Positions 11,860-33,751 of a DNA stretch of 42,292 nucleotides are shown one piece after another (position 1 is the first letter of the stretch; each line of letters opens with the position of its first letter). This DNA comes from a virus (taxonomy: Duplodnaviria > Heunggongvirae > Uroviricota > Caudoviricetes), in the IMG/VR virus record IMGVR_UViG_2651869755_000015, positions 1 to 42,292 of that record. One strand, written 5' to 3'. The notes under the pieces are model-generated. The model was not told the DNA's origin and searched no databases. It worked only from the letters and a program-made list of their open reading frames with translations. The position numbers were made by a program, and so were the translations under genes.

Positions 11860-12198
11860 ATGGCTAAATCAGCAGCAGAGCGCAAAGCCGCTCAGAGAGC
11901 CAGACAAGCTGAATCCGGTGTACGTAAGCTGGAGATTGTGCTTGATGCTCAGGAAATTGAAATGCTGGAGCGTAACTGTGCCACGCGTCGCCCCGGGCGT
12001 GCGCCTTACGAATTTGGTGAGTATATAGCGTTACTGATCCGCCAGGATGATGCACGCGTGCGCGGGCGTATAAAATCGATCAGCAGAAAACGTTGCGGTA
12101 AGTGCGGCGAGAGAGTTCCTGTGAATTCATGCCCGTGTAATGGTGACTCGCAATGCTGGGTGACTAAAGGCTGGCATGAAACGAAATTAATAGTGTGA
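11860..12198 (+). CDS. Hypothetical DNA-binding protein (RHH-like N-terminus, Cys-rich zinc-ribbon-like C-terminus)
   Basis: ATG at 11860 after AAAGGTGAA; C-terminal CGKCGERVPVNSCPCNGDSQC; stop codon lies inside the 14-bp palindrome at 12194-12207. Confidence 0.45.
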   Translation: MAKSAAERKAAQRARQAESGVRKLEIVLDAQEIEMLERNCATRRPGRAPYEFGEYIALLIRQDDARVRGRIKSISRKRCGKCGERVPVNSCPCNGDSQCWVTKGWHETKLIV

Positions 12199-12207
12199 CA
12201 TGTCACG
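12194..12207. repeat. 14-bp perfect palindrome TGTGACATGTCACG (copy 1)
   Basis: Exact 14-mer shared with 14598-14611 and, in reverse complement, with 32009-32022. Confidence 0.85.
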
Positions 12208-12215
12208 AAGGTGTT

Positions 12216-12428
12216 ATGCCAAAAATACGCTACGACCTTGAAGATATGAGAGATAACTCAGCAAATTTTCCGAAAGAGGTTAAATTTCTCATGCATAAGT
12301 ATGGTTGCGCCAGGAGGGATATAGTTATCGACAGTCAGCACCCTTGCGGCGAGGATGTAATTTTCATTCGCGGTAAATGGGAAGGGTATCTTGACGAGAG
12401 TTTTTACGATGAATTTGATGGACTTTGA
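12216..12428 (+). CDS. Hypothetical protein (70 aa)
   Basis: ATG at 12216 preceded by GAAGGTG; last gene before the terminator ahead of terS. Confidence 0.4.
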   Translation: MPKIRYDLEDMRDNSANFPKEVKFLMHKYGCARRDIVIDSQHPCGEDVIFIRGKWEGYLDESFYDEFDGL

Positions 12429-12433
12429 ATACT

Positions 12434-12459
12434 GCCGCCAACTATGGCGGCTTTATTTT
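12434..12459 (+). terminator. Rho-independent terminator between early genes and terS
   Basis: Stem GCCGCC/GGCGGC, loop AACTAT, then TTTATTTT. Confidence 0.55.
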
Positions 12460-12470
12460 GCATGTTACTA

Positions 12471-12503
12471 TTACCACAACGGTAACTATTACCACGGTGG
12501 TTA
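12471..12503. promoter_or_regulatory. Operator-like dyads immediately upstream of terS
   Basis: TTACCACAACGGTAA (12471-12485) and a degenerate copy TTACCACGGTGGTTA (12489-12503) within ACTATTACCAC direct repeats. Confidence 0.5.
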
Positions 12504-13099
12504 TGATGCCTGCTGAACCTAAAACCTATAAACGCAAATCAACGCAATTTAAGCCGCTCACAGCAATGCAGGAGGCTTATTGCCAGTCATACATCAAAAC
12601 GCCTGAAAACCAGACTCAGGCAGCGATTAACGCAGGATTCTCCCCAAATACAGCGGCAGTTAAAGCCAGTGTCATGATGCGCGATGAACGCATTCAAAAA
12701 CGGATTGCCGAGTTGATGGAGGAGCGCAACAAACGAATGCGCGTCAGTGCTGATTACGTTCTCATGCGCCTGGTGGAGATCGACCAGATGGACGTGATTG
12801 ATATCCTCAACGACGATGGGAGCCTTAAGCCAATCCGCGAGTGGCCGAAAATCTGGCGCACTACGCTTAGCGGCTTTGATCTGTCATCGACCATCATGAA
12901 CATGAACGAGGATTCGATAGAGACAATCCTCAAAAAAATTAAATGGCCTGACAAGGTGAAGAACCTTGAGCTGATTGGTAAGCACGTCGATGTCAATGCA
13001 TTCAAAGAACGCCTGGATGTTAATGTGAATGTGACAATTGCTGATCGCATAGCGGCAGCCAGGAAGAGACTGAAAGAACGTCAGGATGGCAATCAGTGA
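12503..13099 (+). CDS. Terminase small subunit
   Basis: ATG at 12503 (track ORF starts upstream at 12425); HTH-like N-terminal region LTAMQEAYCQSYIKT...AAINAGFS; 4-nt overlap with terL. Confidence 0.65.
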   Translation: MMPAEPKTYKRKSTQFKPLTAMQEAYCQSYIKTPENQTQAAINAGFSPNTAAVKASVMMRDERIQKRIAELMEERNKRMRVSADYVLMRLVEIDQMDVIDILNDDGSLKPIREWPKIWRTTLSGFDLSSTIMNMNEDSIETILKKIKWPDKVKNLELIGKHVDVNAFKERLDVNVNVTIADRIAAARKRLKERQDGNQ

Positions 13100-14571
13100 C
13101 AGATGCAGCGTTATCTCCTGAAGAGCAGTTGATCGAGGATATTGCAGGGTTCACTCACGATCCGCTTGGCTATGCCCTCTATGCGTTCCCGTGGGGGGAA
13201 GAGGGGACTGAACTGGCACATGCCACCGGTCCACGTCAGTGGCAGGCTGATGCGTTCCGAGAGATACGTGATCACCTGCAGAATCCAGAGACGCGCTATC
13301 AGCCGCTTATGCTGGCACGCGCTTCTGGTCACGGTATTGGTAAATCCGCATTCATCTCAATGCTGATCAACTGGGGCATGTCCACTTGCGAGGATTGTAA
13401 GGTCGTGGTGACCGCCAACACCGACAACCAGCTACGAACGAAGACCTGGCCGGAAATTATCAAGTGGTCGAACCTTGCTATCACGAAAGACTGGTTTACC
13501 TGTACCGCTACCGCGATGTACAGCAATGATCCTGGGCACGACAAGCGGTGGCGAGCTGACGCAATCCCCTGGTCTGAGCACAACACTGAGGCATTCGCCG
13601 GATTACACAACGAGCGCAAACGCATCATCGTGGTATTCGATGAAGCGTCGAACATTGCGGATCTGGTGTGGGAAGTTGCTGAGGGTGCGCTTACGGACGA
13701 AGACACTGAGATTATCTGGGTGGCGTTCGGAAACCCGACGCGTAATACCGGGCGATTCCGTGAATGTTTCCGCAAGTATAAACACCGCTGGAAAACTGCG
13801 CAGATTGACAGCCGGACGGTGGAAGGCACCAACAAACAGCAGTTGCAGAAATGGGTTGATGACTACGGGGAAGACAGCGACTTCGTTAAAATCCGTGTGC
13901 GCGGCATATTCCCGGATGCATCTGAATTGCAGTTTATCCCTACCGGTCTTACTGACGAGGCAATGAAACGGGTGGTAACCGCTGCGCAGGTGGCACATGC
14001 TCCGGTGATAATCGGCGTTGACCCGGCATACTCCGGTGTTGATGACGCTGTGATATACCTGCGGCAGGGGCTGCACAGTAAGGTGCTGTGGACTGGCAAC
14101 AAGACCACTGACGATCTGATTATGGCGAAGCGTATCGCTGACTTTGAAGACCAGTATCAGGCTGACGCGGTGTTCATCGACTTCGGTTACGGAACCGGTT
14201 TGAAGTCAATCGGTGATGGCTGGGGTCGTACATGGCAACTTGTTCCGTTCGGTGGCGCGTCTACTGACCCGCAGATGCTCAACAAGCGTGGGGAGATGTT
14301 CAACTCATGCAAGACATGGCTGAGGCTCGGCGGCATGCTGGATGACCAGGAAACAGCGGACGACCTGTCGACGGCAGAGTACAAAGTTCGCGTGGACGGT
14401 AAAATCGTTATCGAACCGAAGGAAGATATCAAAGAGCGACTTGGGCGTTCTCCTGGTAAAGGCGATGCGCTACTGCTGACGTTTGCGTTCCCTGTGTCGA
14501 AGCGTCTGCGAATTCCCGGGCAGCAGAACCAGCAAGGCAAAGCCATCACAGACTATGATCCTTTTGCATAA
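13096..14571 (+). CDS. Terminase large subunit
   Basis: 491 aa; Walker A-like ASGHGIGKS; size and position after terS. Confidence 0.9.
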   Translation: MTDAALSPEEQLIEDIAGFTHDPLGYALYAFPWGEEGTELAHATGPRQWQADAFREIRDHLQNPETRYQPLMLARASGHGIGKSAFISMLINWGMSTCEDCKVVVTANTDNQLRTKTWPEIIKWSNLAITKDWFTCTATAMYSNDPGHDKRWRADAIPWSEHNTEAFAGLHNERKRIIVVFDEASNIADLVWEVAEGALTDEDTEIIWVAFGNPTRNTGRFRECFRKYKHRWKTAQIDSRTVEGTNKQQLQKWVDDYGEDSDFVKIRVRGIFPDASELQFIPTGLTDEAMKRVVTAAQVAHAPVIIGVDPAYSGVDDAVIYLRQGLHSKVLWTGNKTTDDLIMAKRIADFEDQYQADAVFIDFGYGTGLKSIGDGWGRTWQLVPFGGASTDPQMLNKRGEMFNSCKTWLRLGGMLDDQETADDLSTAEYKVRVDGKIVIEPKEDIKERLGRSPGKGDALLLTFAFPVSKRLRIPGQQNQQGKAITDYDPFA

Positions 14572-14574
14572 AAA

Positions 14575-14594
14575 AGCCCGCGAATCGGCGGGCT
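14575..14594 (-). terminator. Hairpin terminator (mainly minus-strand) between terL and moron
   Basis: Stem AGCCCGC/GCGGGCT with T-run on the minus strand; adjacent to palindrome copy 2. Confidence 0.5.
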
Positions 14595-14597
14595 GAT

Positions 14598-14611
14598 TGT
14601 GACATGTCACG
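14598..14611. repeat. 14-bp perfect palindrome TGTGACATGTCACG (copy 2)
   Basis: Identical 14-mer to copy 1. Confidence 0.85.
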
Positions 14612-14614
14612 GCG

Positions 14615-15037
14615 TTAGAAGGTTATTTTATCGAATGCGGCGTTGATTGCCTTGGCGTCCTGCTCAGCACCAACCACATCAAGTAAAGATCTTTTACTAA
14701 GCACTTCAGCCAGGCATTGTAACTTCATGTTGTATAAGTTTTCGCGCATGTAATCATCATCACTTTTTTCTTTGGCGTATACAGCGCGAGAAATATCAAA
14801 CACATTGCCTTTTTCCATTTCAGTTTTCTGCGCTGAAATCCAGTCATGGCAAGTAACTCCTATTCCATGGTCATCGCTAAGCGTTAACCCGGCAAGTCGC
14901 TCACCTGGAATTGCTTCACAAAGCATTTCATTTCCTGCAAAAACACCATAAAAAATTGAGTCATCACCCTGAACAATGCGTACATATTTGCACGGCCATT
15001 CATTTAGATATTTAGCTAGCATGTCGGCTGTTTTCAT
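14615..15037 (-). CDS. Hypothetical moron protein (140 aa)
   Basis: Opposite-strand gene inserted between terL and portal, bounded by terminator hairpins on both sides. Confidence 0.5.
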   Translation of the reverse strand: MKTADMLAKYLNEWPCKYVRIVQGDDSIFYGVFAGNEMLCEAIPGERLAGLTLSDDHGIGVTCHDWISAQKTEMEKGNVFDISRAVYAKEKSDDDYMRENLYNMKLQCLAEVLSKRSLLDVVGAEQDAKAINAAFDKITF

Positions 15038-15060
15038 GATCTCACCTTAAAAAAATGCCC

Positions 15061-15084
15061 GGCGAACCGGGCTGTACTGGTTTA
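15061..15084 (-). terminator. Rho-independent terminator downstream of tRNA
   Basis: Minus strand GCCCGGTTCGCCGGGC followed by ATTTTTTT. Confidence 0.5.
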
Positions 15085-15202
15085 CAGCATGAAGTCATCG
15101 CAATGGCGTCCTGCTGTAAAAAGGGCGGTGATAGTTCTTCAAGGGAAACCATCACCGCCAAGCCCCTGGAACTTCTGGCATCACGGTCCTCAGGCGTGAT
15201 TC

Positions 15203-15279
15203 TGGCGTGGCATGCAGGATTCGAACCTGCGACCAACCGCTTAGAAGGCGGTTGCTCTGTCCAACTGAGCTAATGCCAC
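15203..15279 (-). tRNA. tRNA-Arg (anticodon UCU)
   Basis: Minus-strand 77-nt sequence GTGGCATTAGCTCAGTTGGACAGAGCAACCGCCTTCTAAGCGGTTGGTCGCAGGTTCGAATCCTGCATGCCACGCCA folds as a cloverleaf (7-bp acceptor stem, GTTCGAATC T-loop, anticodon loop CTTCTAA, 3' CCA). Confidence 0.85.
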
Positions 15280-15601
15280 AACGCTGAGAGCACTTAGCCT
15301 GTTAAGGCGCCACACTTTGTCGCGGCTCCATAAATGCTCTCATCGTTGTACCCTCGTCTCTTCCGAGGCGTCACACCGAATCGCCGGGATGGTGAATCCC
15401 CGTGCGCGGAATAAAACCGCTCGACTTGCACATTCCGGCTACCTGGTTCGTTTGCCCGAGCAAGGGAGGGTGCCCCTTAAACGTATCCAGACCGCTATCG
15501 TCGCATGTGCCATACGCCGTACTGCTCAAAATAAAAGCTCACTCCACCTGTTCAATTTAACGACAAGCCAGTCAGGTTAGTAACCGGAATGAACTCTTTA
15601 G

Positions 15602-15616
15602 TTACCTGAAAGGTAA
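15602..15616. promoter_or_regulatory. Operator-like dyad TTACCTGAAAGGTAA upstream of the structural operon
   Basis: Perfect dyad, identical to the site at 35706-35720; followed by CATATGTGGTTAAATTGGTAAT. Confidence 0.55.
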
Positions 15617-15706
15617 TAATTTGTGCGTTAAATGTCAACTGTCTACGATAAATAAATCATATGTGGTTAAATTGGTAATAATTTAATTGCGTACGGAGTC
15701 ATTGAT

Positions 15707-15913
15707 ATGTGCATGGGTAGCTCACCATCAGTGCCTGCAACACCAGAAGTTCAGGCAGCACCACAGGAGCAGGATGCCGCCGTTGTTGATGCCCGCGACG
15801 AAGAAACACGTCGCCGTCGCGCTGCTGCTGGTCGTAGTTCTACGCTGCTTACCGGTTCTCAGGGCGACACATCAACCGCTAATACCAGCGGTAAAACGCT
15901 GCTTGGTCAGTAA
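15707..15913 (+). CDS. Hypothetical small protein (68 aa) preceding portal
   Basis: ATG preceded by CGGAGTCATTGA, the same initiation context as the portal gene; low-complexity sequence. Confidence 0.35.
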   Translation: MCMGSSPSVPATPEVQAAPQEQDAAVVDARDEETRRRRAAAGRSSTLLTGSQGDTSTANTSGKTLLGQ

Positions 15914-15927
15914 CCGGAGTCATTGAA

Positions 15928-17607
15928 ATGGCGGAAACAACTAAAGAGCGATTGAACAAACAGTTCGCACAACTTGAAAGCGAGCGTCAGTCGTTCGAGC
16001 CGCACTGGCGCGAGTTGAGTGATTACATCAACCCGCGTGGTTCCCGCTTTCTGACTTCTGAGGCCAACCGTAACGATCGGCGCAATACACGCATTATTGA
16101 TTCGACCGGGACTATGGCGGCGCGCACTCTCGCCAGCGGCATGATGTCAGGCATCACAAGCCCCGCGCGTCCGTGGTTTCGCCTGGCTACGCCAGATCCT
16201 GAAATGATGGATTATGGCCCTGTTAAGTTGTGGCTTGAGGCAGTTCAGAACCGCATGAACGATATGTTCAATAAGTCGAATCTCTACCAGTCTCTTCCGC
16301 AGTTATACGGAAGCCTCGGCACATACAGCACTGGTGCAATGGCAGTGCTGGAGGATGACGAGGACATCATTCGCACAATGCCATTCCCGATAGGCAGTTA
16401 CTACCTGGCTAACTCACCTCGTGGCAGTGTTGACACCTGTTTTCGCAAGTTCTCTATGACTGTTCGTCAGCTTGTTCAGGAGTTCGGGCTAAATAACGTC
16501 AGCGAATCCGTAAAAAGCATGTGGGAAAGCGGCACCTACGAGAAGTGGATCGAAGTGATGCATTCGGTTTACCCGAACATTGACCGCGATACATCGAAGC
16601 TGGATAGCAAGAACAAGCCATTCAAATCGGTTTATTACGAGGTTGGTGGAGATAACGACAAGTTGTTGCGTGAGTCCGGATTCGATGAGTTTCCAATTAT
16701 GGCTCCGCGCTGGGAAGTTAACGGCGAAGATGTTTATGGATCATCATGCCCGGGTATGCTGGCGCTTGGGCCTGTTAAGGCATTGCAGCTTCTCCAGAAG
16801 CGCAAGTCGCAGTTGATTGATAAAGCCACCAATCCGCCGATGGTTGCTCCGACTTCCCTCAAGAATCAGCGCGCCTCCCTTCTTCCTGGCGACATCACGT
16901 ATATCGATCAGATTACTGGTCAGGATGGCTTCAGGCCTGCTTATCTGGTTAACCCCAGTACAGCAGATTTGGTGGCAGACATTCAGGACACTCGTCAAAT
17001 CATTAACAGCGCCTACTTTGTCGATCTGTTCATGATGTTGCAGAACATCAATACCCGCTCGATGCCTGTTGAAGCGGTGATCGAAATGAAAGAAGAAAAA
17101 CTTCTGATGTTGGGGCCGGTTCTGGAGCGTCTGAACGACGAATGTCTTAATCCTCTCATTGACCGCGCTTTCTCGATGATGGTGCGCAAAAACATGCTGC
17201 CGCCACCGCCTGACGCGATGGAAGGCATGCCCCTGAAGGTCGAATACATTTCCGTCATGGCTCAGGCGCAGAAGTCTATCGGCCTGTCCAGTCTGGCGTC
17301 CACGGTTAACTTCATTGGTCAACTTGCGCAAGCGAAACCAGAAGCTCTCGACAAACTCAACGTTGATCAGGCGATCGATGCATTCGCTGATATGTCCGGA
17401 GTGTCTCCAACCGTCATTGTTCCGCAGGAACAGGTTGAGCAGGCTCGCCAGCAACGGGCACAGCAACAACAGCAGCAACAAATGATGGCGATGGGGATGG
17501 CGGCGGCACAGGGGGCCAAGACGCTAAGCGAAGCTAAAACTTCGGATCCGAGTGTGTTGTCAGCTATGGCGAATGCAGTTAGTGGTCAGGGTGGGCAATC
17601 ACAATGA
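15928..17607 (+). CDS. Portal (head-to-tail connector) protein, podovirus/T7-like
   Basis: 559 aa; Gln/Ala/Met-rich C-terminus (QQRAQQQQQQQMMAMGMAAAQGA) resembling the recalled T7 gp8 C-terminus; position after terminase. Confidence 0.8.
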   Translation: MAETTKERLNKQFAQLESERQSFEPHWRELSDYINPRGSRFLTSEANRNDRRNTRIIDSTGTMAARTLASGMMSGITSPARPWFRLATPDPEMMDYGPVKLWLEAVQNRMNDMFNKSNLYQSLPQLYGSLGTYSTGAMAVLEDDEDIIRTMPFPIGSYYLANSPRGSVDTCFRKFSMTVRQLVQEFGLNNVSESVKSMWESGTYEKWIEVMHSVYPNIDRDTSKLDSKNKPFKSVYYEVGGDNDKLLRESGFDEFPIMAPRWEVNGEDVYGSSCPGMLALGPVKALQLLQKRKSQLIDKATNPPMVAPTSLKNQRASLLPGDITYIDQITGQDGFRPAYLVNPSTADLVADIQDTRQIINSAYFVDLFMMLQNINTRSMPVEAVIEMKEEKLLMLGPVLERLNDECLNPLIDRAFSMMVRKNMLPPPPDAMEGMPLKVEYISVMAQAQKSIGLSSLASTVNFIGQLAQAKPEALDKLNVDQAIDAFADMSGVSPTVIVPQEQVEQARQQRAQQQQQQQMMAMGMAAAQGAKTLSEAKTSDPSVLSAMANAVSGQGGQSQ

Positions 17608-17900
17608 CAGATTACGAAGACGATCAACTGAAAGAAGAAAACGCCCGTAAGCAACGTGACATGGCGCAGCGTGAAATTGATGACATTCGCTTTGTCATGA
17701 GCAGTGAACAGGGGCGTCGCGTTGTCTGGTCGGTACTGGAGAAAGGCCGTGTGTTTTCCGCTATCTCACCGATGGACGCTATGGCAATGGCATTTAATGA
17801 GGGGCAACGCAATCTGGCGCTGGAACTGTTTCAGCGCGTTATGGCGCATTGCCCTGAACAGTATTTGAAGATGGCCAAAGAGGCCAGTGAACAGGAGTGA
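17604..17900 (+). CDS. Hypothetical head-assembly protein (98 aa)
   Basis: Small acidic ORF between portal and scaffold, 4-nt overlap with portal. Confidence 0.45.
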   Translation: MTDYEDDQLKEENARKQRDMAQREIDDIRFVMSSEQGRRVVWSVLEKGRVFSAISPMDAMAMAFNEGQRNLALELFQRVMAHCPEQYLKMAKEASEQE

Positions 17901-17902
17901 TC

Positions 17903-18598
17903 ATGAATTTATTTGAGCGTTTGCTGTATCGCCGTCTTTGCAATGAGCAACCAGTCGATGGTGGAGCAGCTCCGGCTGCGTCAGAACCGTCAGCGCCTGC
18001 AGGTGATAACCATGCTCCAGTTGGTGATCCATCACAACCGGAAGGTGATAAGTCACAACCTGTTGCTGATGGCGATAAACCGGCTGATGACAAAAATCCT
18101 GAAAACGATAAGCAGGATGAAAAAAAGGACGGCGATAAACCAGAGGGTGCGCCTGAGAAGTACGAGTTTCAGGCTGCCGAAGGCGTAGAGCTGGATACAG
18201 AAGCGTTGAAGGAATTCGAGCCGGTGGCGCGAGAACTAAACCTGACCAACGAGCAAGCGCAAAAGCTGGTTGATGCTTATCCGAAGATTCTGGCAGGTGT
18301 TCAGCAGCGCCAGGCAGAAGCCTGGCAGAAAACAACCGAGCAGTGGGCTGCGGATGTAAAAGCTGATAAAGAAATCGGTGGCGACAAGTTGATTTCTAAC
18401 CTTAGCGCCGCACAGCGTGCGCTTGACCAGTTCGGGACACCTGAACTCAAAGAATATCTGAACACCACCGGGCTGGGTAATCACCCTGATCTGGTCAAAA
18501 CGTTCGTGAAAATCGGAAAGGCGATGTCTGAAGATGGCATGGTCACCGGTGGTAATGAAGGCCAGCGTAGTGCGGCCGAAGTGCTCTATGGCAAATAA
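17903..18598 (+). CDS. Scaffolding protein
   Basis: ATG at 17903 after CAGGAG; highly acidic, Pro/Asp/Lys-rich, low-complexity N-terminal half and helical C-terminal half; located between portal and capsid. Confidence 0.6.
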   Translation: MNLFERLLYRRLCNEQPVDGGAAPAASEPSAPAGDNHAPVGDPSQPEGDKSQPVADGDKPADDKNPENDKQDEKKDGDKPEGAPEKYEFQAAEGVELDTEALKEFEPVARELNLTNEQAQKLVDAYPKILAGVQQRQAEAWQKTTEQWAADVKADKEIGGDKLISNLSAAQRALDQFGTPELKEYLNTTGLGNHPDLVKTFVKIGKAMSEDGMVTGGNEGQRSAAEVLYGK

Positions 18599-18612
18599 GA
18601 GAGGAAATAACA

Positions 18613-19599
18613 ATGGCTGTTAAAGGCTTAACTGCGCTAACGCTGGCTGACTGGGGTAAGCGCGTCGATCAAAACGGGAAAGTCGATAAGATTATCGAGC
18701 TTCTCGGTCAAACTAACCCGATCCTTCAGGATATGCCTTTTGTCGAAGGGAACCTTCCTACCGGACACCGAACCACCATTCGTTCTGGTTTACCTTCAGC
18801 TACCTGGCGTTTGCTGAACTATGGCGTACAGCCAAGCAAATCAACCACAGTGCAGGTAACCGATTCCGTTGGCATGCTGGAAACCTATGCTGAAGTCGAT
18901 AAGTCACTGGCTGATCTGAACGGTAATACCGCCGAATTCCGCCTGTCTGAAGACCGCGCATTTATTGAAGCGATGAATCAGCAGATGGCGCAGACGCTGT
19001 TTTATGGTGATTCCAGCGTTAACCCTCAGCAGTTTATGGGACTGTCCTCCCGCTATTCCAGCCTGTCTGCAGGTAATGCTCAGAACATCATTGATGCTGG
19101 TGGCACGGGTACAGATAACACCTCAATCTGGTTAGTAGTGTGGGGCGAAAACACCGTGCATGGCATCTTCCCGAAAGGGCAGAAGGCTGGCATCCAGATG
19201 GAAGATAAAGGCCAGGTGACACTGGAAGATGCGAATGGCGGCAAGTACGAAGGCTACCGTACCCATTACAAATGGGACAACGGACTTACTCTGCGTGACT
19301 GGCGTTATGTTGTTCGCATTGCAAACATCGATGTCAGAAATCTTTCAGAACCTTCCTCTGCCGCAAATATTGCGAAGTTGATGGTTAAAGCACTGCATCG
19401 CATTCCAAACCGTGGCATGGGTCGCCCGGTGTTCTACATGAACCGCACTGTAGGCCAGGCTCTTGATCTGCAGTCTCTGGAGAAAACATCTCTGGCGATT
19501 AGCGTAAAAGAGACTGAAGGCGAGTGGTGGACGTCATTCCGTGGTGTACCAATCCGTGAAACTGATGCGCTTCTGGAAACAGAAGCCCGCGTGGTGTAA
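18613..19599 (+). CDS. Major capsid protein
   Basis: 328 aa following scaffold; followed by stem-loop GTGGGTC/GACCCAC (about 19608-19629) as often seen after capsid genes. Confidence 0.75.
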   Translation: MAVKGLTALTLADWGKRVDQNGKVDKIIELLGQTNPILQDMPFVEGNLPTGHRTTIRSGLPSATWRLLNYGVQPSKSTTVQVTDSVGMLETYAEVDKSLADLNGNTAEFRLSEDRAFIEAMNQQMAQTLFYGDSSVNPQQFMGLSSRYSSLSAGNAQNIIDAGGTGTDNTSIWLVVWGENTVHGIFPKGQKAGIQMEDKGQVTLEDANGGKYEGYRTHYKWDNGLTLRDWRYVVRIANIDVRNLSEPSSAANIAKLMVKALHRIPNRGMGRPVFYMNRTVGQALDLQSLEKTSLAISVKETEGEWWTSFRGVPIRETDALLETEARVV

Positions 19600-19650
19600 C
19601 GCCTGTTATTAACCTGTGGGTCGTAACAGACCCACTAATGGAGAAAGAAG

Positions 19651-20088
19651 ATGATCACCGACAAACTGTTGATGTTCTCCGAAGCACAGGCGGTAACTGA
19701 TACCGCGGCTTCTACTGACGTAATCGATCTCGGTCCAATTGATGGAAACCGTCGCGATATCGGTGTGGGTTACCCGCTTGAGTTTTGGGGGCTGGTTAAC
19801 GAAGCCGCCACGGCAAGTGGTGAGGCAACTGTAAACATCCAGTTGCAGACGAGTGAGAATAACAGCTCTTGGACCACTATTTATGATAGTGGTGCGTTGG
19901 CAAAGGCCACCCTGACAGCAGGTAAGCGAGTTGTTTCTGCAAAGGTGCCAGCCGGTGTTCAGCGATATCTGCGTGTTAACTACTCCGTCGCAACTGGCCC
20001 ACTAACGGCCGGCAAATTCACTGCGGGTATCAGTCTGGATGTTGATGCCAATACGCCGTACCCGATCCGCTCAAAAGTAACTGGTTAA
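19651..20088 (+). CDS. Hypothetical virion protein (possible capsid decoration/accessory)
   Basis: 145 aa directly downstream of capsid gene with good Shine-Dalgarno (GGAGAAAG). Confidence 0.45.
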   Translation: MITDKLLMFSEAQAVTDTAASTDVIDLGPIDGNRRDIGVGYPLEFWGLVNEAATASGEATVNIQLQTSENNSSWTTIYDSGALAKATLTAGKRVVSAKVPAGVQRYLRVNYSVATGPLTAGKFTAGISLDVDANTPYPIRSKVTG

Positions 20089-20098
20089 GGTGATATCG

Positions 20099-20434: not shown

Positions 20435-20450
20435 GCCTCGCGAATCAGAC

Positions 20451-20472
20451 AAGGGGCTTCGGCCCCTTTATT
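20451..20472 (+). terminator. Hairpin terminator after capsid module
   Basis: Stem AAGGGGC/GCCCCTT, loop TTCG, then TATT. Confidence 0.45.
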
Positions 20473-20490
20473 GCAGGAGTATAGAAACTT

Positions 20491-23567: not shown

Positions 23568-24031
23568 TGATCGATGTTCGAGTTATTCCCGCCACCGAAG
23601 AGCATCTTCAGATGATTTTGCCGGATGTTCGTCAGGCTGATATTGACGAACTGTATGCGGTATCGCTGATGACTACCGAAGATGCGCTGCGTGTTGGTCT
23701 TCGCACTGCGACTATGGCCTGGTCAGGGTTCGCGAACGGAGAACTGGTAACCATGTTTGGTGTATCTCCGGCGTCAATGATCGGTGGCAATGGTACACCC
23801 TGGCTGGTCGGAACCAGCCGTATTGAAAAATATCAGAAGACATTTCTTCGCCACTGCCGACCTGTATTGCAGCAGATGCTGGCAGTTTATCCGCGCCTGG
23901 AAAACTACGTCGACGAGCGAAACCATGTTGCCAAAGCATGGCTGCACTGGCTTGGATTCAGGCTTGAAGAAGCCGCGCCTTATGGTGCTCTTGGTCTTAA
24001 TTTCCACAGATTTCACATGGAGAGAAAATAA
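23567..24031 (+). CDS. Internal virion protein (gp13/14-position)
   Basis: 154 aa, coupled to neighbours; function by synteny only. Confidence 0.4.
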   Translation: MIDVRVIPATEEHLQMILPDVRQADIDELYAVSLMTTEDALRVGLRTATMAWSGFANGELVTMFGVSPASMIGGNGTPWLVGTSRIEKYQKTFLRHCRPVLQQMLAVYPRLENYVDERNHVAKAWLHWLGFRLEEAAPYGALGLNFHRFHMERK

Positions 24032-24576
24032 TGTGCGATCCGGTTATTGCTGGTGGCGCAATGCTCGCCATGAGTGGCATTCAGGCATACACCCAGTACC
24101 AACAGGGAAAGTATGCCTCGAAGGTTGCAGAAGCGAACGCAGATATAGCCACTGCTCAGGCAAATGATGCAATAAACAGAGGTAACGCTGAAGCTGAGCA
24201 ACGGCGCAGAGAGACCCGACAGCGGCTTGGTACTCAAGCGGCGACAATGGGGGCGACCGGCGCCGATTTATCTACCGGTAACGCGCTGGATATATTTGGC
24301 GACACTGCCCAGTTTGGCGCTCTTGATTCGCTGACGACGGTGAATAACGCGCAACGCGAGGCTTACGGTTATCAGGTTCAGGCTGCCAACTATAAAGCAG
24401 AAGCCAGTTCAGCCCGTAAACAGGGGAATGTGGGAGCAGCAACAACATTGCTCACTGCGCCTCTGAAGGCATACGGTGCGTACCAGATGTTTGGTGGGAC
24501 GTGGAGTCCGTTTACTCAAAGCACTCCTGCGCCAATCGGGGCAGCAGCAGGAACCAGATTACCCGGAGGATTATAA
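24031..24576 (+). CDS. Internal virion protein (Gly/Ala-rich)
   Basis: 181 aa, Ala/Gly/Gln-rich, TAATG coupling to next gene. Confidence 0.4.
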   Translation: MCDPVIAGGAMLAMSGIQAYTQYQQGKYASKVAEANADIATAQANDAINRGNAEAEQRRRETRQRLGTQAATMGATGADLSTGNALDIFGDTAQFGALDSLTTVNNAQREAYGYQVQAANYKAEASSARKQGNVGAATTLLTAPLKAYGAYQMFGGTWSPFTQSTPAPIGAAAGTRLPGGL

Positions 24577-27197
24577 TGCCAGTCGTACCAACAGTATCCG
24601 GACGTCAGGTTGAGAGCCGTGGAGTTCAGTCAGCAGGCTTACAGACGTTTTCTCAGCCAGGTATTGGTGATGCTTTTGTTCGGGCAGGGGCAGAGGCAAT
24701 TGATGTTTTTGGTCAGGCAAAACAGCGTGCCAATATTGCCTTGGTTCAGGAGGCATCCCTTAAACTCAGTCAGACAGGCAGTGATCTGCTGAATAATCCT
24801 GAAACAGGATTGCTTAACCTGAAAGGGAAAAATGCTATTGGAAAAGGCCATGAGTATACACAGCAGTTTGATGCTCAGATCGAACAACTGGCTATGTCGC
24901 TGCCGGATGAACAGGCTCGTAATGCTTTCATGCAGCAGGCGCAGCAGCAGCGTATTCAGTTCGCTACGCAGGCCGGGAGGTACGAAATAGGACAGGTTCG
25001 CCAGTATGAGGCGGATATGCAGGATGCGACACTAAAAAACCTATCGATGCAGTTCCGTCACCCGACAATGGCAAACCAGGCAGGATTGAAGGCATATCAT
25101 AGCATCATCGCTTACGGCGAAGCCCACGGCCAGAGTCAGGAAGAGATCGAACAGAACTGGGTTTCGTGGCGCGAGAATGCCGCGAACGGTGCGGCGGAGG
25201 CGTGGTATGTGCCGATGTATCAACAGATGATGGGTCCGAACGGCAAGATTGAGGTAACCGATACACCGAGTGAGGCGCAGTTATTCTCTGCAATAATCTG
25301 GCAGGAGAGTGGCGGAAATCAGTACGGAAAGGACGGAACACCTCTGGTGTCGCCAAAAGGCGCTGTTGGCGTAGCGCAGGTGACGGAAGATACTGGCCCC
25401 GAAGCTGCCCGCCTTGCTGGCGTGCCGTGGGACCGAGATAAATGGTTGAATGACCCGCGCTATAATGCCCGCTTGGGGCAAGCTTATTTCGGCGCGCAGA
25501 TGAAGAAATACGACAATAACCCGGTTCTGGCAGTAGCTGCCTATAACGCTGGCCCAGGAAAGGTTGACGGCTGGATTAAACAGATTGGCGATCCGCGCAC
25601 AGGCGAAGTCAGTAACGCCCAGTTTGCCGCAGCTATCCCATACGACGAGACGCGCAATTATGTGGCAAAAGTAACTGGCAGTGCTGGAGCTATTCCTGGA
25701 TCTGCGACGATGGAAAACCTCATCGCACAGCCATTCTGGAACGCCATGAGTCCGGACAAAAAGTCGCAGATGATGAGCAAGGTTGCTGGCATGTACGACA
25801 TGCAGGCTTCAGCCGGTCGCGTTGCGCTACAGAGTCGAATGCAGGACGACCTATCCAAAATTGAGGCCGGTAAGCAGGTGACGCCTATTTCAGCGCACGA
25901 ATGGGCCGCCGTTATGCCGCTTCAGGCAGCGCCTGCCGAGCGCCTGCAGATGGAAAAAACCTTCCAGCAATACCAGCAGGCAATGACGCTACAACCTGTT
26001 TATCAGACCATTATGCAGGGCAACGTCCAGCAGGGTACCGCCGCCGTGCAGGCAATGGCACCGCAGGAAAACGACCCTGACTTTAAATACAAAGCAGAGC
26101 TTTATGCATCGGCAAAGGTCAAGCTTGGGCAGGTACTGAAGGCGCGGGAAGCGGATCCGGGGGCATGGCTGCAACAAAACTCTCCGGTTGTGCAGGCTGC
26201 ATTCCAGCAGTACCTGAATGACCCTTCATCTGGTGAATACCTAGTTTCCCGCATACAGTCTGAAAAAGACCGCCTGGGGATAATGAGCAAAAAAGTTTTA
26301 CCGGAGTCCATGGTCAACGACGTACTGCAGCGTATTGACAACACGCAGGAATCTAGCGTAAAGGCCATTCAGTCGGTGGCGCAGTCGTTCGGCAAATACT
26401 CGGATAAGGTGATGCAGCAGGTTCAGAAGAGCGCTTATCCTGCGTTGCAGGTTGTCATGGCTACCGAGAACCCGCGCGCGGCAAATGCGCTCTGGCAAAA
26501 CCGTAGCGTTAAAACTGCTGACTTACGCGGCAGTCTTGAGAAAACCGACGCGGATAGCGCCGACTCGTCATGGAATGACCAATCGAAAGATTTTGCTGGC
26601 ACGATGGTTGTTCAGCCTGGTGGCACTGCCGTGTGGAATAACTTCAACGAGCAGGGAAAACGACTTACTTACATCAACATGCAGCGCGGAATGTCGGCGT
26701 CTGATGCAGCAAAACAGGCGTATCAGGACATCCTCGGCGAGCAGTACCAGACCAATGGCACTTGGCGGCTACCTAAGCGTGCAGGGATAGATATTCGTGA
26801 CGTTAACGATGGTGCCAATGCGTATCTGAAAAACCTGTCAGCAGATCAGATTATGCCGCTTATTGGTGACCCAAGGCTACCTGATGAGGTCAACCGTGAG
26901 CAGAGTATCTCCCGCATTCGTGATAATGCGCAGTGGGTTACCAACAGCGACGAAACAGGACTTACCCTGATGCTCAACGGGCTGATCGTCAACGGTGCCG
27001 ACGGCAACCCGATTACGGTGCCGTTCAACGATCTGGCGAAACTGGGAACAACCAACCGATCAGTATGGAACAGCATTACCAAGTTCATTGATACTCCGGT
27101 GAAATATACTCCCGGACAGTCTAAGGAATACAGCGCAGAAAGTCAGCGCGACAACCTGATTAACATTTTCCAGAACGGCCAGCAATCAGGACGATAA
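24576..27197 (+). CDS. Internal virion/ejection protein with lytic transglycosylase (SLT) domain
   Basis: ATG at 24576 after GGAGGA; SLT-type motifs WQESGGNQ...GVAQV...AAYNAGPGKV. Confidence 0.75.
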   Translation: MPVVPTVSGRQVESRGVQSAGLQTFSQPGIGDAFVRAGAEAIDVFGQAKQRANIALVQEASLKLSQTGSDLLNNPETGLLNLKGKNAIGKGHEYTQQFDAQIEQLAMSLPDEQARNAFMQQAQQQRIQFATQAGRYEIGQVRQYEADMQDATLKNLSMQFRHPTMANQAGLKAYHSIIAYGEAHGQSQEEIEQNWVSWRENAANGAAEAWYVPMYQQMMGPNGKIEVTDTPSEAQLFSAIIWQESGGNQYGKDGTPLVSPKGAVGVAQVTEDTGPEAARLAGVPWDRDKWLNDPRYNARLGQAYFGAQMKKYDNNPVLAVAAYNAGPGKVDGWIKQIGDPRTGEVSNAQFAAAIPYDETRNYVAKVTGSAGAIPGSATMENLIAQPFWNAMSPDKKSQMMSKVAGMYDMQASAGRVALQSRMQDDLSKIEAGKQVTPISAHEWAAVMPLQAAPAERLQMEKTFQQYQQAMTLQPVYQTIMQGNVQQGTAAVQAMAPQENDPDFKYKAELYASAKVKLGQVLKAREADPGAWLQQNSPVVQAAFQQYLNDPSSGEYLVSRIQSEKDRLGIMSKKVLPESMVNDVLQRIDNTQESSVKAIQSVAQSFGKYSDKVMQQVQKSAYPALQVVMATENPRAANALWQNRSVKTADLRGSLEKTDADSADSSWNDQSKDFAGTMVVQPGGTAVWNNFNEQGKRLTYINMQRGMSASDAAKQAYQDILGEQYQTNGTWRLPKRAGIDIRDVNDGANAYLKNLSADQIMPLIGDPRLPDEVNREQSISRIRDNAQWVTNSDETGLTLMLNGLIVNGADGNPITVPFNDLAKLGTTNRSVWNSITKFIDTPVKYTPGQSKEYSAESQRDNLINIFQNGQQSGR

Positions 27198-27198
27198 C

Positions 27199-28896
27199 AT
27201 GCCAATTTACACAGATGATCCGGGACAGGGAATTAACCAGCCAATTGGCAACGCGCCAGCAGGGCTTGGCGAATCGCTGCTTTCTTCCCTTAAGCAGGGA
27301 TTTGAAGAGGGGCCGGTCATGTCCGGCTACCGCTTTGCGCAGGCCGACTCGCTGGCGAATGACCAAAACTCTACAGTTATCAGTAAGCAGGAAGCGGATG
27401 AGCTCCTGAAGCAGTACGGCGTAAAGAGCATAAACGTGCCAGATTCTGGCGTTACGCAGGCTTTTCTCGATCATGTTATTGCCGAACGCAAAGATTCTCT
27501 GGCACGCCAGCAGATCGCGATGTCGGCACCGAGCGGGTGGGTAGCCACGCCGCTTAATTTCGCAGCCAGCCTAGCTGGTTCAATGGCAGATCCTGGTAAC
27601 GTGGCGCTGGCGCTGGTTCCGTTCGCTGGAGAAGCAAAGGCGGCTTCTGTGCTTGGCCGATTTGGCGAGCGATTTGTTGCTGGTGCACGCATGGGGGCAG
27701 CGCAGGCGTTGGTGACCGTGCCGCTTACCGGGCTGGCAGCGGCGGCGGAAGGTGACGACTTCACCTATAGCAACGCGTTGGAAAGTACTTTCTTTAACAC
27801 GATGGCTGGCGGTCTAATACATGCCGGCGGCGGCCTTATCGCCGATATCGTGCGACCGCGTCGCGTTCCCGATGCTGCAACGGGAGAGTCCCCGGCGTTT
27901 TCTGGCGATGCGCAGCCAACCCCGGTGATAACGCCTGACAACATTCCGGCGGGCGTGAATATCCCTGAGGTTGGCGCTAACGCAGATCTGGCGGCGGCCA
28001 TTTCCAGTGAAGCGGAGAGCTACGCATACAGCCGGGCTTATGACGACGTGGTTCCTGACTATATGGCGCGCCAGCAGGAGTTACAGAGCGGGCAGATCGG
28101 TAACGTTGCCGACCTGCGTGCCGAGCTTGCGGCTAATCAACGTCATGCTGACTCGCTTGATGCGACGCTGCAGCAGCGCACCAAAAAGTATCAGGGGCAG
28201 CGGATGAAGTTTAAGGATGCGCGCTCTAGGGCACTGAAAGAGATTCAGGCCGAGAAAGACGCCATCGCTGCACGCAATCAGGAGATCAACACATCGCTGG
28301 AGCAGAACGCGACAGCAGAGCAGGCGCGCTGGCGCCAGTCTCAGATTTCCCGCGGCGAGATCCCCGACGACCTGAAAGTCACCATTTCCGAGCGTGCGCA
28401 GCAGATCCTGGACGGCATGCAGATGTCGCCGGTCGCTGGCGCAGTTCGCACTGCCGCAAGCGCCATCAGGGATGCTGACTGGAACGTGAACCAGCAGGCG
28501 TATCGCGCTGCGCTGGCACACATGATGGAAGGACGTAGCCCAGATGTTGAGCCCTTCTATGAACTGCACAAACCAGCACTGCGTGAACGCGCCATCCATC
28601 GCATACAGAACCCGGCACGGCAGGTTGATGAAACGGCTCGCCCAGCAAGCGAAACAGCCGATCGGGTTTATCAAGAAACGCAAAAGGCAGATCATGAAAT
28701 TACCGCTGCCGCTGCAGACCTTGATAACGAGCTCAACCTGAGTAACGCCCTGCTTGACGATATCGCTGTCGATAACCCTGATCTTGCGACCACGTTGCGC
28801 CAGAAACTCAATGATATTCGTGCCGACGCCAGCGACAATAGTATGAGCAACGCTTTCCGGGCATTTGCCGCCTGTATGATTAACCGGGGGATGTGA
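27199..28896 (+). CDS. Internal virion/ejection protein
   Basis: 565 aa Ala-rich protein in the ejection-protein block. Confidence 0.45.
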   Translation: MPIYTDDPGQGINQPIGNAPAGLGESLLSSLKQGFEEGPVMSGYRFAQADSLANDQNSTVISKQEADELLKQYGVKSINVPDSGVTQAFLDHVIAERKDSLARQQIAMSAPSGWVATPLNFAASLAGSMADPGNVALALVPFAGEAKAASVLGRFGERFVAGARMGAAQALVTVPLTGLAAAAEGDDFTYSNALESTFFNTMAGGLIHAGGGLIADIVRPRRVPDAATGESPAFSGDAQPTPVITPDNIPAGVNIPEVGANADLAAAISSEAESYAYSRAYDDVVPDYMARQQELQSGQIGNVADLRAELAANQRHADSLDATLQQRTKKYQGQRMKFKDARSRALKEIQAEKDAIAARNQEINTSLEQNATAEQARWRQSQISRGEIPDDLKVTISERAQQILDGMQMSPVAGAVRTAASAIRDADWNVNQQAYRAALAHMMEGRSPDVEPFYELHKPALRERAIHRIQNPARQVDETARPASETADRVYQETQKADHEITAAAADLDNELNLSNALLDDIAVDNPDLATTLRQKLNDIRADASDNSMSNAFRAFAACMINRGM

Positions 28897-31445
28897 TGGC
28901 AGCAAACGAATTTTTGACGCAGTGCGAGCGCAGTGTAAATGCTGCCGCTGGTCGCGAGCTTTCTTCCGATGAGATGGAGTCGCTGGTGCGTGACATGAAC
29001 GACACCACTAGGCGAATTCTGGCGACCAATGAGGCGCTGTCTCTGGAAGAGGCCGCGATGCGCGCAGCGGAAGAACTGAGCAATGCCGATATGCTGGCAA
29101 AACAGATTGAGGCTCGCAATAAGGCAATCAACGCCCGTATTGCCGCACAACGACTTAGAGAGCTTCGTACTATCTGGAAAGACCGCCCGGATATCGGGCT
29201 TGAAGCAATGCTGGTTGGCCGCAACGATGCGCGTACCGGCGCCCGCCGGTCGGTATCTTCGGAGGTGGCGCAACTGCGCGGCAAGTATCATTCCGGTATC
29301 AACTACGATTTTGACCGTGCCGGGCTGGTGCAATTCATCGCCAGCGGCAGCAATGACCGGGAAATTGCCGATGCAATGTGGCGCATAGGGCGCGGGCAGT
29401 CAACTGACGGTATGACAAAGCAATCCGTAAGCGCTGCACAAATCATCATGAAATGGCAGGAAACTGCGCGCATTGATGAGAACCGCGCCGGGGCATGGAT
29501 ACGCAAAGAGCCGGGCTATATAGTGCGCCAGTCACACGACATCATGAAGATCCGCGCCGCAGGTTATGAAGCATGGCGAAATGCTATTCTCCCGCGCCTT
29601 GATGAGCGCACTTTTGACGGCGTGGCTGACCGCGAGCAGTTCATGCGTAACATTTATAACGGGCTGGCTTCCGGCGTGCATCTTACATCTGAAAAGCCCG
29701 ATTGGATGAATGGCTTTAAGGGATCGGCGAACGCAGCTAAACGCGCCAGCCAAGAGCGAATTTTGCACTTCAAAGATGGTATCTCGTGGCACGAGTACAA
29801 CCAGCAATTCGGCACCGGCAGCCTGCGAGAAGCGCTGTTTGGTGGCTTAAACAGCGCTGCCCGCACAACGGGCATGATGCGCGTACTGGGCACTAACCCA
29901 CAGAACATGTTTAAGTACCTGACGGACGCCATTGCTGAAGATATCAGCAAATCCGGAAGACCGGCAGCGTTGGCTGACTACATGACGAAGGTGCGTCGCA
30001 TTAACCGTACCGTAATGCCGCAGGTTGACGGCTCGCTAAATATTCCTGGCAGCGTAGGCTGGGCCAATGCGTCGGCGGCTGTACGCGGCTGGTTGCGTAT
30101 GAGCCAACTTGGTGGCGCGGTAATCTCATCGTTTAACGACGTGCCTATCGCCGCTACCGAGATGCGCTACCAAGGGCAGAATTTTATGCAGGCGTTGCTT
30201 GGTGCTATGAGAGGCCGCTTCACGCGTTACAACAGCGCGGAGCAGAAAGAGATCCTTTCCTCTATCGGAGTTTATTCCGACTCCATGACGCAGGAAATCA
30301 TCCGGCGCATATCTGGTGATGACACGCTGAATGGAAAGCTTGGTCGCGCGCAGCAGCTTTTCTTTAAGTACAACCTCATGAACTTCTGGACCGAGAGCGG
30401 TCGCAACAGCAACGCCATGATGATAACCAACTGGCTTGCAAAGAATGCTGACCAGTCTCATGCGCGGCTACCGGAAGACCTGCGACGCGTGCTGGATCTG
30501 CACGGTATTGGCGAACGTGAGTGGGAAATTTTTCGCAACATGGACATGGCCGATAGCGAAGGTCGTAAGTTCATGACGACCAGCGGCATCCGCGGCGTGC
30601 CTGACGAAGTGATTGCCGGTTATGTAGAGAGTAAGGGGATCAAACCAACGCAGCGCGCTATCGCTGACGCACGCGATCAATTGGAAGGGCAGTTGCGCGG
30701 CTACATCCTTGACCGCCTGAATATCGCCATGTCAGAGCCTGGCGATCGCACGCAGGCGTTTATGAAGATGGGCACGGTGCCAGGAACGGTGGCTGGGGAA
30801 GCAATACGATTCGCTGGTCAGTACAAATCGTTCACTGCAAGCTTCATGCAGAACGTACTAGGACGCGAAGTATTCGGGCGTGGTTATATTCCTGCTGGGC
30901 TTGGTGAGTCGAAAACCGGATCGCTGACGAATGCGCTGCTACGTAACGGGAAGGGGGCTTTCCTTGGTGCTGCAAACCTCTTTGTCTGGGCGACTATGTT
31001 TGGTTATATCTCCATGCAGTCAAAACTCATGCTGAAAGGGCAAACACCACGCCCGGCAGATGCCAAGACGTTTCTCGCAGCCGCATCTCAGGGGGGCGGT
31101 CTTGGCATCTTGGGTGACTTCATGTTTGGTGAGGTCAACCGCATGGGGGCCGGGCCGGTTACGTCGCTAATGGGGCCAGCAGCATCGAACGCTGACAGCA
31201 TTATCACGCTGCTCCAGCAGACCACGAGAGGGGATGCAGATTTGGGTGACTGGTATCGCACGGCACTTGACAATACGCCATTCCTCAACGTGTTCTGGCT
31301 TCGTACGGCGATGAATGGTTTAATATTGAACCGGATACAAGATGCCCTTGACCCAGGCTCTCTTGAGCGTTATCAGCGCCGTGTTGAGCGTGAGCAGGGG
31401 AACGACTTTCTGATCCCACCATCGCAGTTCATGCTAGGTAAATAA
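28896..31445 (+). CDS. Large internal virion/ejection protein
   Basis: ATG at 28896 overlapping the previous stop; 850 aa; last gene of the high-GC structural block. Confidence 0.5.
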   Translation: MAANEFLTQCERSVNAAAGRELSSDEMESLVRDMNDTTRRILATNEALSLEEAAMRAAEELSNADMLAKQIEARNKAINARIAAQRLRELRTIWKDRPDIGLEAMLVGRNDARTGARRSVSSEVAQLRGKYHSGINYDFDRAGLVQFIASGSNDREIADAMWRIGRGQSTDGMTKQSVSAAQIIMKWQETARIDENRAGAWIRKEPGYIVRQSHDIMKIRAAGYEAWRNAILPRLDERTFDGVADREQFMRNIYNGLASGVHLTSEKPDWMNGFKGSANAAKRASQERILHFKDGISWHEYNQQFGTGSLREALFGGLNSAARTTGMMRVLGTNPQNMFKYLTDAIAEDISKSGRPAALADYMTKVRRINRTVMPQVDGSLNIPGSVGWANASAAVRGWLRMSQLGGAVISSFNDVPIAATEMRYQGQNFMQALLGAMRGRFTRYNSAEQKEILSSIGVYSDSMTQEIIRRISGDDTLNGKLGRAQQLFFKYNLMNFWTESGRNSNAMMITNWLAKNADQSHARLPEDLRRVLDLHGIGEREWEIFRNMDMADSEGRKFMTTSGIRGVPDEVIAGYVESKGIKPTQRAIADARDQLEGQLRGYILDRLNIAMSEPGDRTQAFMKMGTVPGTVAGEAIRFAGQYKSFTASFMQNVLGREVFGRGYIPAGLGESKTGSLTNALLRNGKGAFLGAANLFVWATMFGYISMQSKLMLKGQTPRPADAKTFLAAASQGGGLGILGDFMFGEVNRMGAGPVTSLMGPAASNADSIITLLQQTTRGDADLGDWYRTALDNTPFLNVFWLRTAMNGLILNRIQDALDPGSLERYQRRVEREQGNDFLIPPSQFMLGK

Positions 31446-31447
31446 TA

Positions 31448-32008
31448 ATGAAGGCAATTATATTTTTTGTTTCAATATTGATGTCTGCATTTTCTTTTGC
31501 AGGGCAAAATGTTAAATGCGAACTTCAATACTTTGGAGATAGCGATAAATTTAAGGTAACTCAGTTTTCTTTTATGGGGATTCCATCTGATTCATACCTT
31601 TATACCTGTGCCGACTGTGGAGGCATCCAGATAAACGTGTTCCCATCTATTCAGACTGTTGCCTCCTACTCATTTGAAAACAACATTGATTTCGAAAGGA
31701 AAATCAATGCTGAATACAACAGAAAAGACATAGCTAAACTTGAGATGGAAAACGTTACTCAAGGCGGGAGAATAAAATATTCAATCACCGATACTGGTTT
31801 GGCAGAGTTTTACCCAGAGGGCAAAAAGATAAGCTACCTCTACTTTTTAGCCAAGCAACAAAATGGTAAAGAACAAGTAGGTTATTCAGGATTTGTTACC
31901 TCTAACGGGGATAAGTCATGCTCAATTATTGCGACATATCCAGGAAAAGAAATTTCTTTTCTGGGAAGTAAATCTTTAAGCTACTTTATGAATCATATAT
32001 CAATGTAG
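31448..32008 (+). CDS. AT-rich secreted protein (signal peptide), accessory
   Basis: N-terminal MKAIIFFVSILMSAFSFAGQ signal-peptide-like; visibly AT-rich codon usage; followed by palindrome copy 3. Confidence 0.55.
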   Translation: MKAIIFFVSILMSAFSFAGQNVKCELQYFGDSDKFKVTQFSFMGIPSDSYLYTCADCGGIQINVFPSIQTVASYSFENNIDFERKINAEYNRKDIAKLEMENVTQGGRIKYSITDTGLAEFYPEGKKISYLYFLAKQQNGKEQVGYSGFVTSNGDKSCSIIATYPGKEISFLGSKSLSYFMNHISM

Positions 32009-32022
32009 CGTGACATGTCACA
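32009..32022. repeat. 14-bp perfect palindrome CGTGACATGTCACA (copy 3, inverted orientation)
   Basis: Exact reverse complement of the 14-mer at 12194 and 14598. Confidence 0.85.
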
Positions 32023-32123
32023 GGCCGCTTTCGCGGTCTTGTTTTTAACGGATGCCACCGCCACCCGGGCGGGAATCCGCAGAACGCCCACCGCAGCGGG
32101 AGCCGTCAGCAGCAGTGTCGCTG

Positions 32124-32627: not shown

Positions 32628-32652
32628 ATAAGCCACCTAAACTGCGTAAAAA

Positions 32653-33725: not shown

Positions 33726-33751
33726 ATCTCCTCCTCATGTAAACACATGGT

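Follow-up and report, generated by a model that had tools for sequence, protein, structure and literature searches.

Three copies of the 12-bp palindrome GTGACATGTCAC in a 42,292-nt stretch of viral DNA (IMG/VR virus record IMGVR_UViG_2651869755_000015, positions 1 to 42,292; the whole stretch is referred to as the window) are probably operators, i.e. specific double-stranded DNA (dsDNA) binding sites, of a small phage protein encoded at 11860-12198. We infer binding from the co-occurrence of protein and site in phages with unrelated backbones, and from the covariation of the centre of the site with the protein. The window represents an epsilon15/phiV10-like podovirus prophage (genus Uetakevirus) and covers it completely, from the integrase gene to attR; its right end (41050-42292) is host chromosome containing yfgI/yfgH and adjoining guaA. 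The guaA-side integration site is the one reported for the related Uetakevirus ZX5, in a paper that deals with other regulators (PMC9782041).

The palindrome and the gene that ends in it

The sequence TGTGACATGTCACG was found in exact form at 12194-12207 and 14598-14611, and as its reverse complement at 32009-32022. A first-pass annotation of the window had described it as a 14-bp perfect palindrome present three times; copy number and positions were correct, but the outer T and G of the 14-mer do not pair. Only the 12-bp core is perfectly palindromic (exactly three copies at 12195-12206, 14599-14610, and 32010-32021), and it is flanked by a pyrimidine on one side and a purine on the other (Y...R). 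In shuffled windows, with up to two mismatches allowed, a mean of 0.35 matches was obtained, and the observed count was reached in none of 100; the generalised motif GTGACNNGTCAC occurred three times versus 0.04 expected. The repeat is real, and the chance expectation is far below one copy, as had been estimated earlier. Its distinction from the operator motif of the repressor was likewise confirmed: the repressor sites annotated in epsilon15 (ATTACC-N5-GGTAAT) are unrelated to the palindrome. The three copies, referred to as sites A, B, and C, lie at gene ends where the first-pass annotation had placed them, and their contexts could be defined more sharply:

11860..12198 (open reading frame [ORF] start 11857/11860), plus strand: candidate regulator gene, 112 amino acids (aa), phrog_536
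12195..12206, no strand: site A, GTGACATGTCAC; 12196-12198 is the TGA stop codon of the candidate regulator gene
14599..14610, no strand: site B, GTGACATGTCAC; flanked by the bidirectional terminator on the terL side and by the stop codon of a convergent cargo gene
32010..32021, no strand: site C, GTGACATGTCAC; preceded directly by the stop codon of the last tail-operon gene and followed by a rho-independent terminator

The early-right operon ends with the candidate regulator gene, whose phrog_536 assignment carries the description 'transcriptional regulator'. Homologues of the 112-aa product are epsilon15 gp49, phiV10 p55, N15 gp46, and ZF40 gp22. Sequence searches assigned the protein to no Pfam or NCBIfam family and gave no sequence relative in the PDB, and all 623 of 623 database homologues are named 'hypothetical'. 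The TGA that stops the regulator gene supplies bases 2-4 of an exact palindrome in 75 of 80 related loci, and three further loci have single-mismatch variants; the stop codon also lies inside the palindrome in PAT1, N15, and phiKO2. Because gene and site are physically fused in this way, the regulator gene and one site are inherited together.

The protein has a basic N-terminal helix (AERKAAQRARQ), a predicted ribbon-helix-helix (RHH) core, and four conserved cysteines (CxxC...C...C). The alignment shows an invariant N-terminal helix (R8, R13), and the segment read as the RHH β-strand differs between clades. A structure model built from a three-clade alignment showed a β-strand followed by two helices, matching solved RHH proteins, and an RHH fold is predicted from this model. 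Using PADLOC, no defence family was detected in the regulator or in the neighbouring cargo genes. Neither the protein family nor the sites are annotated in the epsilon15, phiV10, N15, and phiKO2 records examined; in literature searches the exact sequences matched unrelated eukaryotic primers only, and no paper with the motif or a function of the protein was found. A role of the regulator as a Q-type antiterminator was rejected because ZF40 and N15 have separate Q-like genes. In the lysogen proteome of the telomere phage NAR688, 'gp46' was among just nine phage proteins detected (PMC12042878). If this protein is the same as the N15 gp46 homologue, the regulator would be expressed in the prophage state.

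Co-occurrence of protein and site in unrelated phages

The motif co-travels and covaries with one orphan phage protein. Homologues of the regulator beyond Uetakevirus were found by tblastn, and the whole genomes were then scanned for sites. The Pectobacterium myovirus ZF40 (67% identity) has three copies of TGTGACATGTCACA, one of which begins 2 nt after the stop codon of the homologue. In the telomere phages N15 and phiKO2 (about 35% identity), GTGAC-(TG/CA)-GTCAC is present three times each at homologous positions, with one copy holding the homologue's stop codon, and in a plasmid-like Vibrio phage (31% identity) the centre of the three copies is AC/GC, with one copy a short way upstream of terS. 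The expected number of GTGAC-N2-GTCAC copies is 0.02-0.06 for ZF40, N15, and the Vibrio fragment, versus three observed in each. P2-like Yersinia phages (about 39% identity) contain a pair of copies, one exact and one degenerate, that lie 33 bp from each other upstream of an AT-rich gene. Scans of the lambda and P2 genomes revealed neither the protein homologue nor any site. Neither the GTGAC half-sites nor the 2-bp spacing varies, but the dinucleotide at the centre differs from one protein clade to the next (AT, TG/CA, or AC/GC). N15 contains a further dispersed inverted repeat, GTGCGACC..GGTCGCAC, in four copies (at 33481, 35932, 41126, and 45563) that are distinct from its palindrome sites; we take these repeats to be the SopB centromere sites. 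The phiKO2 record annotates their equivalents as putative partitioning sites.

The association was also followed in the reverse direction by scanning viral contigs for the 14-mer with T...A flanks, TGTGACATGTCACA, which gave 80 fragments, all of them short stretches of larger contigs. Eleven of these were Uetakevirus-like, and 22 held a regulator homologue; in about 15 of the 22, the site was located 0-24 nt from the end of the gene. In the sequence labelled L232, a promoter-like TTGCGT-17-TATTAC is enclosed by two exact palindromes with a distance of 27 bp, and the N-terminus of the product of the gene directly downstream aligns with the N-terminal segment of the regulator family (hhalign 65%, E = 6e-5). 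To judge from the sequence, the arrangement is that of a textbook case of autoregulation.

In ZF40-like and N15-like phages, the motif is found inside conserved genes (phrog_2479, a cII-like gene, and repA) without cargo. In one recurrent class, to which one of the ZF40 sites belongs, the palindrome is part of the phrog_2479 coding sequence, where it specifies C/S-D-M-S. Even if a change of a flanking base turns the encoded C into S, the 12-bp core is retained, which points to selection at the DNA level. The phrog_2479 family comprises proteins of ~100 aa, and its gene is located upstream of a recombination exonuclease gene in several phages (L173, L176, L188, L194, and L085 4919-5224). The ZF40 gp08 annotation (162 aa, phrog_2479) seems over-extended relative to the family's common start, which is preceded by a ribosome-binding site (RBS).

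Conserved sites at variable cargo junctions

The palindrome coincides exactly with cargo junctions and is positionally conserved. Epsilon15 (Salmonella), PAT1, and Tyrion (Enterobacter) have it at the same three junctions; in phiV10, two copies are exact, and the third, site A, has one mismatch and spans the record ends. In more than 100 metagenomic relatives (IMG/VR), the positions of the sites are kept and the adjacent DNA changes completely. For site B, 80 metagenomic loci centred on terL were compared: the left side (terL and terminator) is conserved, and the right side comprises many classes that are unrelated to each other. This slot is taken by at least four unrelated cargo families (phrog_4846, PF13876 Phage_gp49_66, PF11195 Tad2-like, and one unknown family), and the cargo genes of all of them end exactly 4 nt from the site-B core. 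PF11195 Tad2-like, which fills the slot in some relatives, is a Thoeris anti-defence domain. A comparison of 63 loci centred on the upstream tail gene revealed site C in 52, as a 12-bp island surrounded by variable last genes and terminator stems. The proposal that the sites mark junctions where gene content varies, for which a search of related phages had been suggested, was thus borne out at B and at C.

Of 34 distinct site-C contexts, 28 had a terminator-like hairpin no more than 55 nt from the palindrome, as did 21 of the 41 contexts of sites A and B, compared with ~1% of random positions. The stem sequences of these terminators vary between relatives while the 12-mer is constant, indicating that the 12-mer is under a sequence-specific constraint of its own. 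This bears on a caveat of the first-pass annotation, according to which the repeat could turn out to be part of a longer conserved coding or terminator element. Site A does overlap a stop codon, and sites B and C do abut terminators; with the 12-mer invariant and the stems changing, the palindrome is nevertheless an element in its own right. The palindrome itself was rejected as an intrinsic terminator, as it offers a 4-bp stem (−2.7 kcal/mol) without a U-tract, and the real terminator-like hairpins are separate and adjacent. The features that surround the three sites in the window are as follows:

12216..12428, plus strand: ORF70 (phrog_1541), 70 aa, presence/absence cargo gene between site A and the terminator
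12434..12451, plus strand: terminator-like hairpin closing the early-right transcription unit, downstream of site A
14575..14594, minus strand: terminator hairpin, bidirectional form, 3 nt from site B, with the best U-tract on the minus strand
14615..15037, minus strand: convergent cargo gene, 140 aa, phrog_4846; stop codon 4 nt from site B
31448..32008, plus strand: AT-rich variable last gene, 186 aa, phrog_11983; ends immediately before site C
32022..32039, plus strand: terminator hairpin abutting site C
32124..35647, minus strand: AT-rich leftward cargo operon to the right of site C, including an ORF6N-type anti-repressor gene (33839..34573)

Site A is followed within 4-10 nt by the RBS and the ATG of ORF70, and the order continues with the 70-aa ORF, the terminator at 12434-12451, a repressor-operator-like sequence, and terS. 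A homologue of this terminator hairpin is annotated in epsilon15 at 39646-39672. The operator-like sequence, ATTACCACAACGGTAA, is of the epsilon15 type and is located at ~12470-12485, between the terminator and the likely true terS start (~12506), a position that matches the 'repressor' site annotated directly upstream of terS in epsilon15. Its placement suggests that the late terS-terL unit is directly repressor-controlled. ORF70 is present in a long form (307 nt) in about a quarter of the relatives; the others have a short form of 121 nt that retains only the mini-ORF MHDEFDGF*, which matches the C-terminus of ORF70. A similar mini-ORF, MKDEFDRF* or MKYEFDGF*, is found on the opposite strand beside site B in epsilon15-type loci.

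In the site-B slot of the window, the phrog_4846 gene is followed by a gene for tRNA-Arg(TCT) on the minus strand (15203-15279). Around site C, the AT-rich cargo described in the first-pass annotation is evident on both sides, with a GC content of 0.34-0.40 (31400-35650) versus about 0.55. The ORF6N-type anti-repressor gene is analogous to anti-immunity/anti-repressor genes at the same place in phiV10 and Tyrion. On the minus strand at 32021-31992, the GTGACA of the palindrome together with an 18-bp spacer and TATGAT gives the top sigma-70-like match of the region (10/12), which faces antisense into the ORF at 31448..32008; promoter-like matches overall occur at chance frequency. In the epsilon15/PAT1 site A, GTGACA also fits a −35 element, followed after 17 bp by TAAATT and then by a terminator (PR'-tR'-like), and site C on the minus strand fits as well. 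A function of GTGACA as promoter −35 was rejected, since the window and phiV10 forms do not preserve it and promoter-like matches are no more frequent than by chance.

Alternative explanations, known systems, and possible function

The junction pattern could mean that the palindromes are sites of recombination or insertion, or targets of a nuclease, at which cargo cassettes are exchanged, as had also been suggested at first. Variable DNA begins exactly at the palindrome, the unrelated cargo families at site B all end at the same distance from the core, many different genes and terminators flank site C, a presence/absence ORF directly follows site A, and a palindromic site would function in either orientation. 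This explanation nonetheless appears unlikely: no recombinase, transposase, or homing nuclease was found among the genes neighbouring the motif, cargo blocks have a copy at one border only rather than at both, and the three sites are fixed in position across genera. Intragenic copies without cargo in ZF40-like and N15-like phages, and the arrangement of the sites as classical paired operators in L232 and the Yersinia phages, argue in the same direction, and the junctions can be explained secondarily if the retained 12-bp island is the sole homology available for exchange. An RNA element would account for the transcribed order, which is always stop codon, palindrome, terminator (plus strand at site C, minus strand at site B, and also site A of epsilon15), and for the short distance of 4-12 nt between the palindrome and a downstream RBS that is seen at site A, at two Vibrio sites, and at the junction of N15 genes 46 and 47. 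A small hairpin between stop codon and terminator could then serve as a processing, stabilising, or protein-binding signal in the 3' untranslated region, or as a translational operator upstream of the RBS. The predicted RNA hairpin, however, is no better than those of shuffled sequences (same stem and energy as given above), and its stem bases are invariant and never covary, whereas the neighbouring terminator stems do. Since promoter-bracketing pairs and intragenic copies on either strand fit recognition of duplex DNA, an RNA element is very unlikely.

Host proteins have to be considered as well. The hosts found belong to Enterobacterales, Vibrio, and Aeromonas, groups that presumably carry MatP, and the Vibrio phage K303 (L090) contains, in addition to its palindromes, one 13-bp sequence, GTGACACCGTCAC (6769-6781), that conforms to the consensus of true matS and whose TGA terminates the upstream gene. 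The half-sites of the palindrome are identical to those of matS (GTGAC[AG]N[TC]GTCAC, 13 bp), and its outer 4 bp (GTGA...TCAC) and 12-bp length are shared with the palindromic SlmA site, GTGAGTACTCAC (PMC3603311, PMC3116907). Thus, a host nucleoid factor (MatP, SlmA, or a relative) might bind the sites, with the linkage to the phage gene being mere synteny. The spacer, however, is one base shorter than that of matS in all enterobacterial cases, and no match to the 13-bp matS was found in the window or its enterobacterial relatives; the SlmA site differs at 4 of 12 positions, with the inner four bases being CATG in the window versus GTAC in the SlmA consensus (PMC3116907). True matS was absent from 500 prophages, which are reported to avoid it (PMC3603311, PMC3116907). 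The motif tracks the phage protein across differing genome positions, and its centre varies by protein clade, with two phages of E. coli (phiV10-like and N15) having different ones. Binding by a host factor fits this covariation less well than operators of the phage protein do, and is regarded as highly improbable. SlmA is a TetR-family protein unrelated to the phage regulator. Operators of the CRP, FNR, or LacI type were dismissed on the basis of spacing and central bases.

The likeness of the phage protein and its sites to MatP/matS is limited to the fold class (RHH) and the half-site. The sites in the window have 12 bp (GTGAC-AT-GTCAC) compared with 13 bp in matS; MatP has a four-helix bundle and a coiled coil, both of which are lacking in the phage protein, which instead has the C-terminal four-cysteine motif. 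Moreover, the protein is phage-encoded, and the prophage sits at guaA rather than in the Ter region. The regulator family profile aligned with E. coli MatP at an hhalign value of 0.1%, and no Pfam or PDB sequence match was obtained. The sequences suggest a pattern of basic helix, strand, helix, and helix similar to that of CopB/RepA2-type proteins, which are without the zinc motif. One Vibrio member of the family matched Pfam PF10723 (RepB-RCR_reg) weakly over the N-terminal helix and the RHH-like region (E = 0.034); its best score of 14.5 bits was below the cut-off of 21, the window protein gave no match, and the comparison of the family with genuine IncF RepA2/CopB yielded an hhalign value of 0.4%. 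On these sequence comparisons, the phage protein is a member of neither the MatP nor the CopB/RepA2 family.

Phage and plasmid RHH repressors with palindromic operators are known (P22 Arc/Mnt, CopG, omega, and the toxin-antitoxin system antitoxins TacA, MazE, and ParD). The phage protein differs from these in that it matches no Pfam RHH family and has an extra zinc-type C-terminal module, and the sites in the window are located at operon 3' ends, against terminators and over the gene's own stop codon, rather than at promoters. In lambdoid phage genomics, conserved boundary or linker sequences have been described at the mosaic junctions of temperate phages. The palindrome resembles them as a short conserved sequence exactly where gene content switches; here, however, it is one specific palindrome, with three copies per genome, that is shared with unrelated phage types having the same protein.

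Among the possibilities listed in the first-pass annotation, binding sites for an unidentified regulator is the one favoured by the evidence, and the gene with its stop codon in site A is the candidate for that regulator. As an operator-binding protein, it would bind as a symmetric dimer through the RHH core. The invariant basic N-terminal helix would read the invariant GTGAC half-sites, and the variable β-strand would lie over the variable central dinucleotide, an assignment made because helix and half-sites are both invariant while strand and centre both vary by clade. Sites B and C close the two rightward transcription units that come next (terS-terL for B, the head-tail operon for C), directly against their terminators. 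Early protein that has accumulated would form roadblocks or insulators at operon ends, which would reinforce termination and curb transcription across the borders between phage operons and oppositely oriented accessory genes; bound protein would also feed back on its own transcript. In addition, the sites may double as a common anchor for cargo exchange among diverged relatives. As they are the only sequence constant at these boundaries, such a role may explain the junction pattern.

A more far-reaching proposal is that of a phage-borne MatP/matS analogue, in which an RHH protein and a few matS-like sites partition the phage genome into insulated domains or engage host machinery of the SMC (structural maintenance of chromosomes) type, such as MukBEF or SMC-like defence complexes. 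The sites would at the same time be fixed ports for the exchange of anti-defence and other cargo among unrelated temperate phages (podo-, myo-, telomere, and plasmid-like), and, being one base shorter, would be invisible to host MatP. We consider this proposal quite unlikely.

Epsilon15, phiV10, and SPC32H among the Uetakeviruses and N15 and phiKO2 among the telomere phages are well-studied models. If the palindromes are indeed operators of the 112-aa protein, they would provide a handle on the function of a widespread orphan phage gene and a candidate control element that separates operons from oppositely oriented accessory or anti-defence genes. GTGAC-N2-GTCAC would then be a simple landmark for finding prophage cargo slots, and its near-identity to matS raises the question of whether one base of spacing prevents interference between the phage sites and the terminus-organising system of the host.

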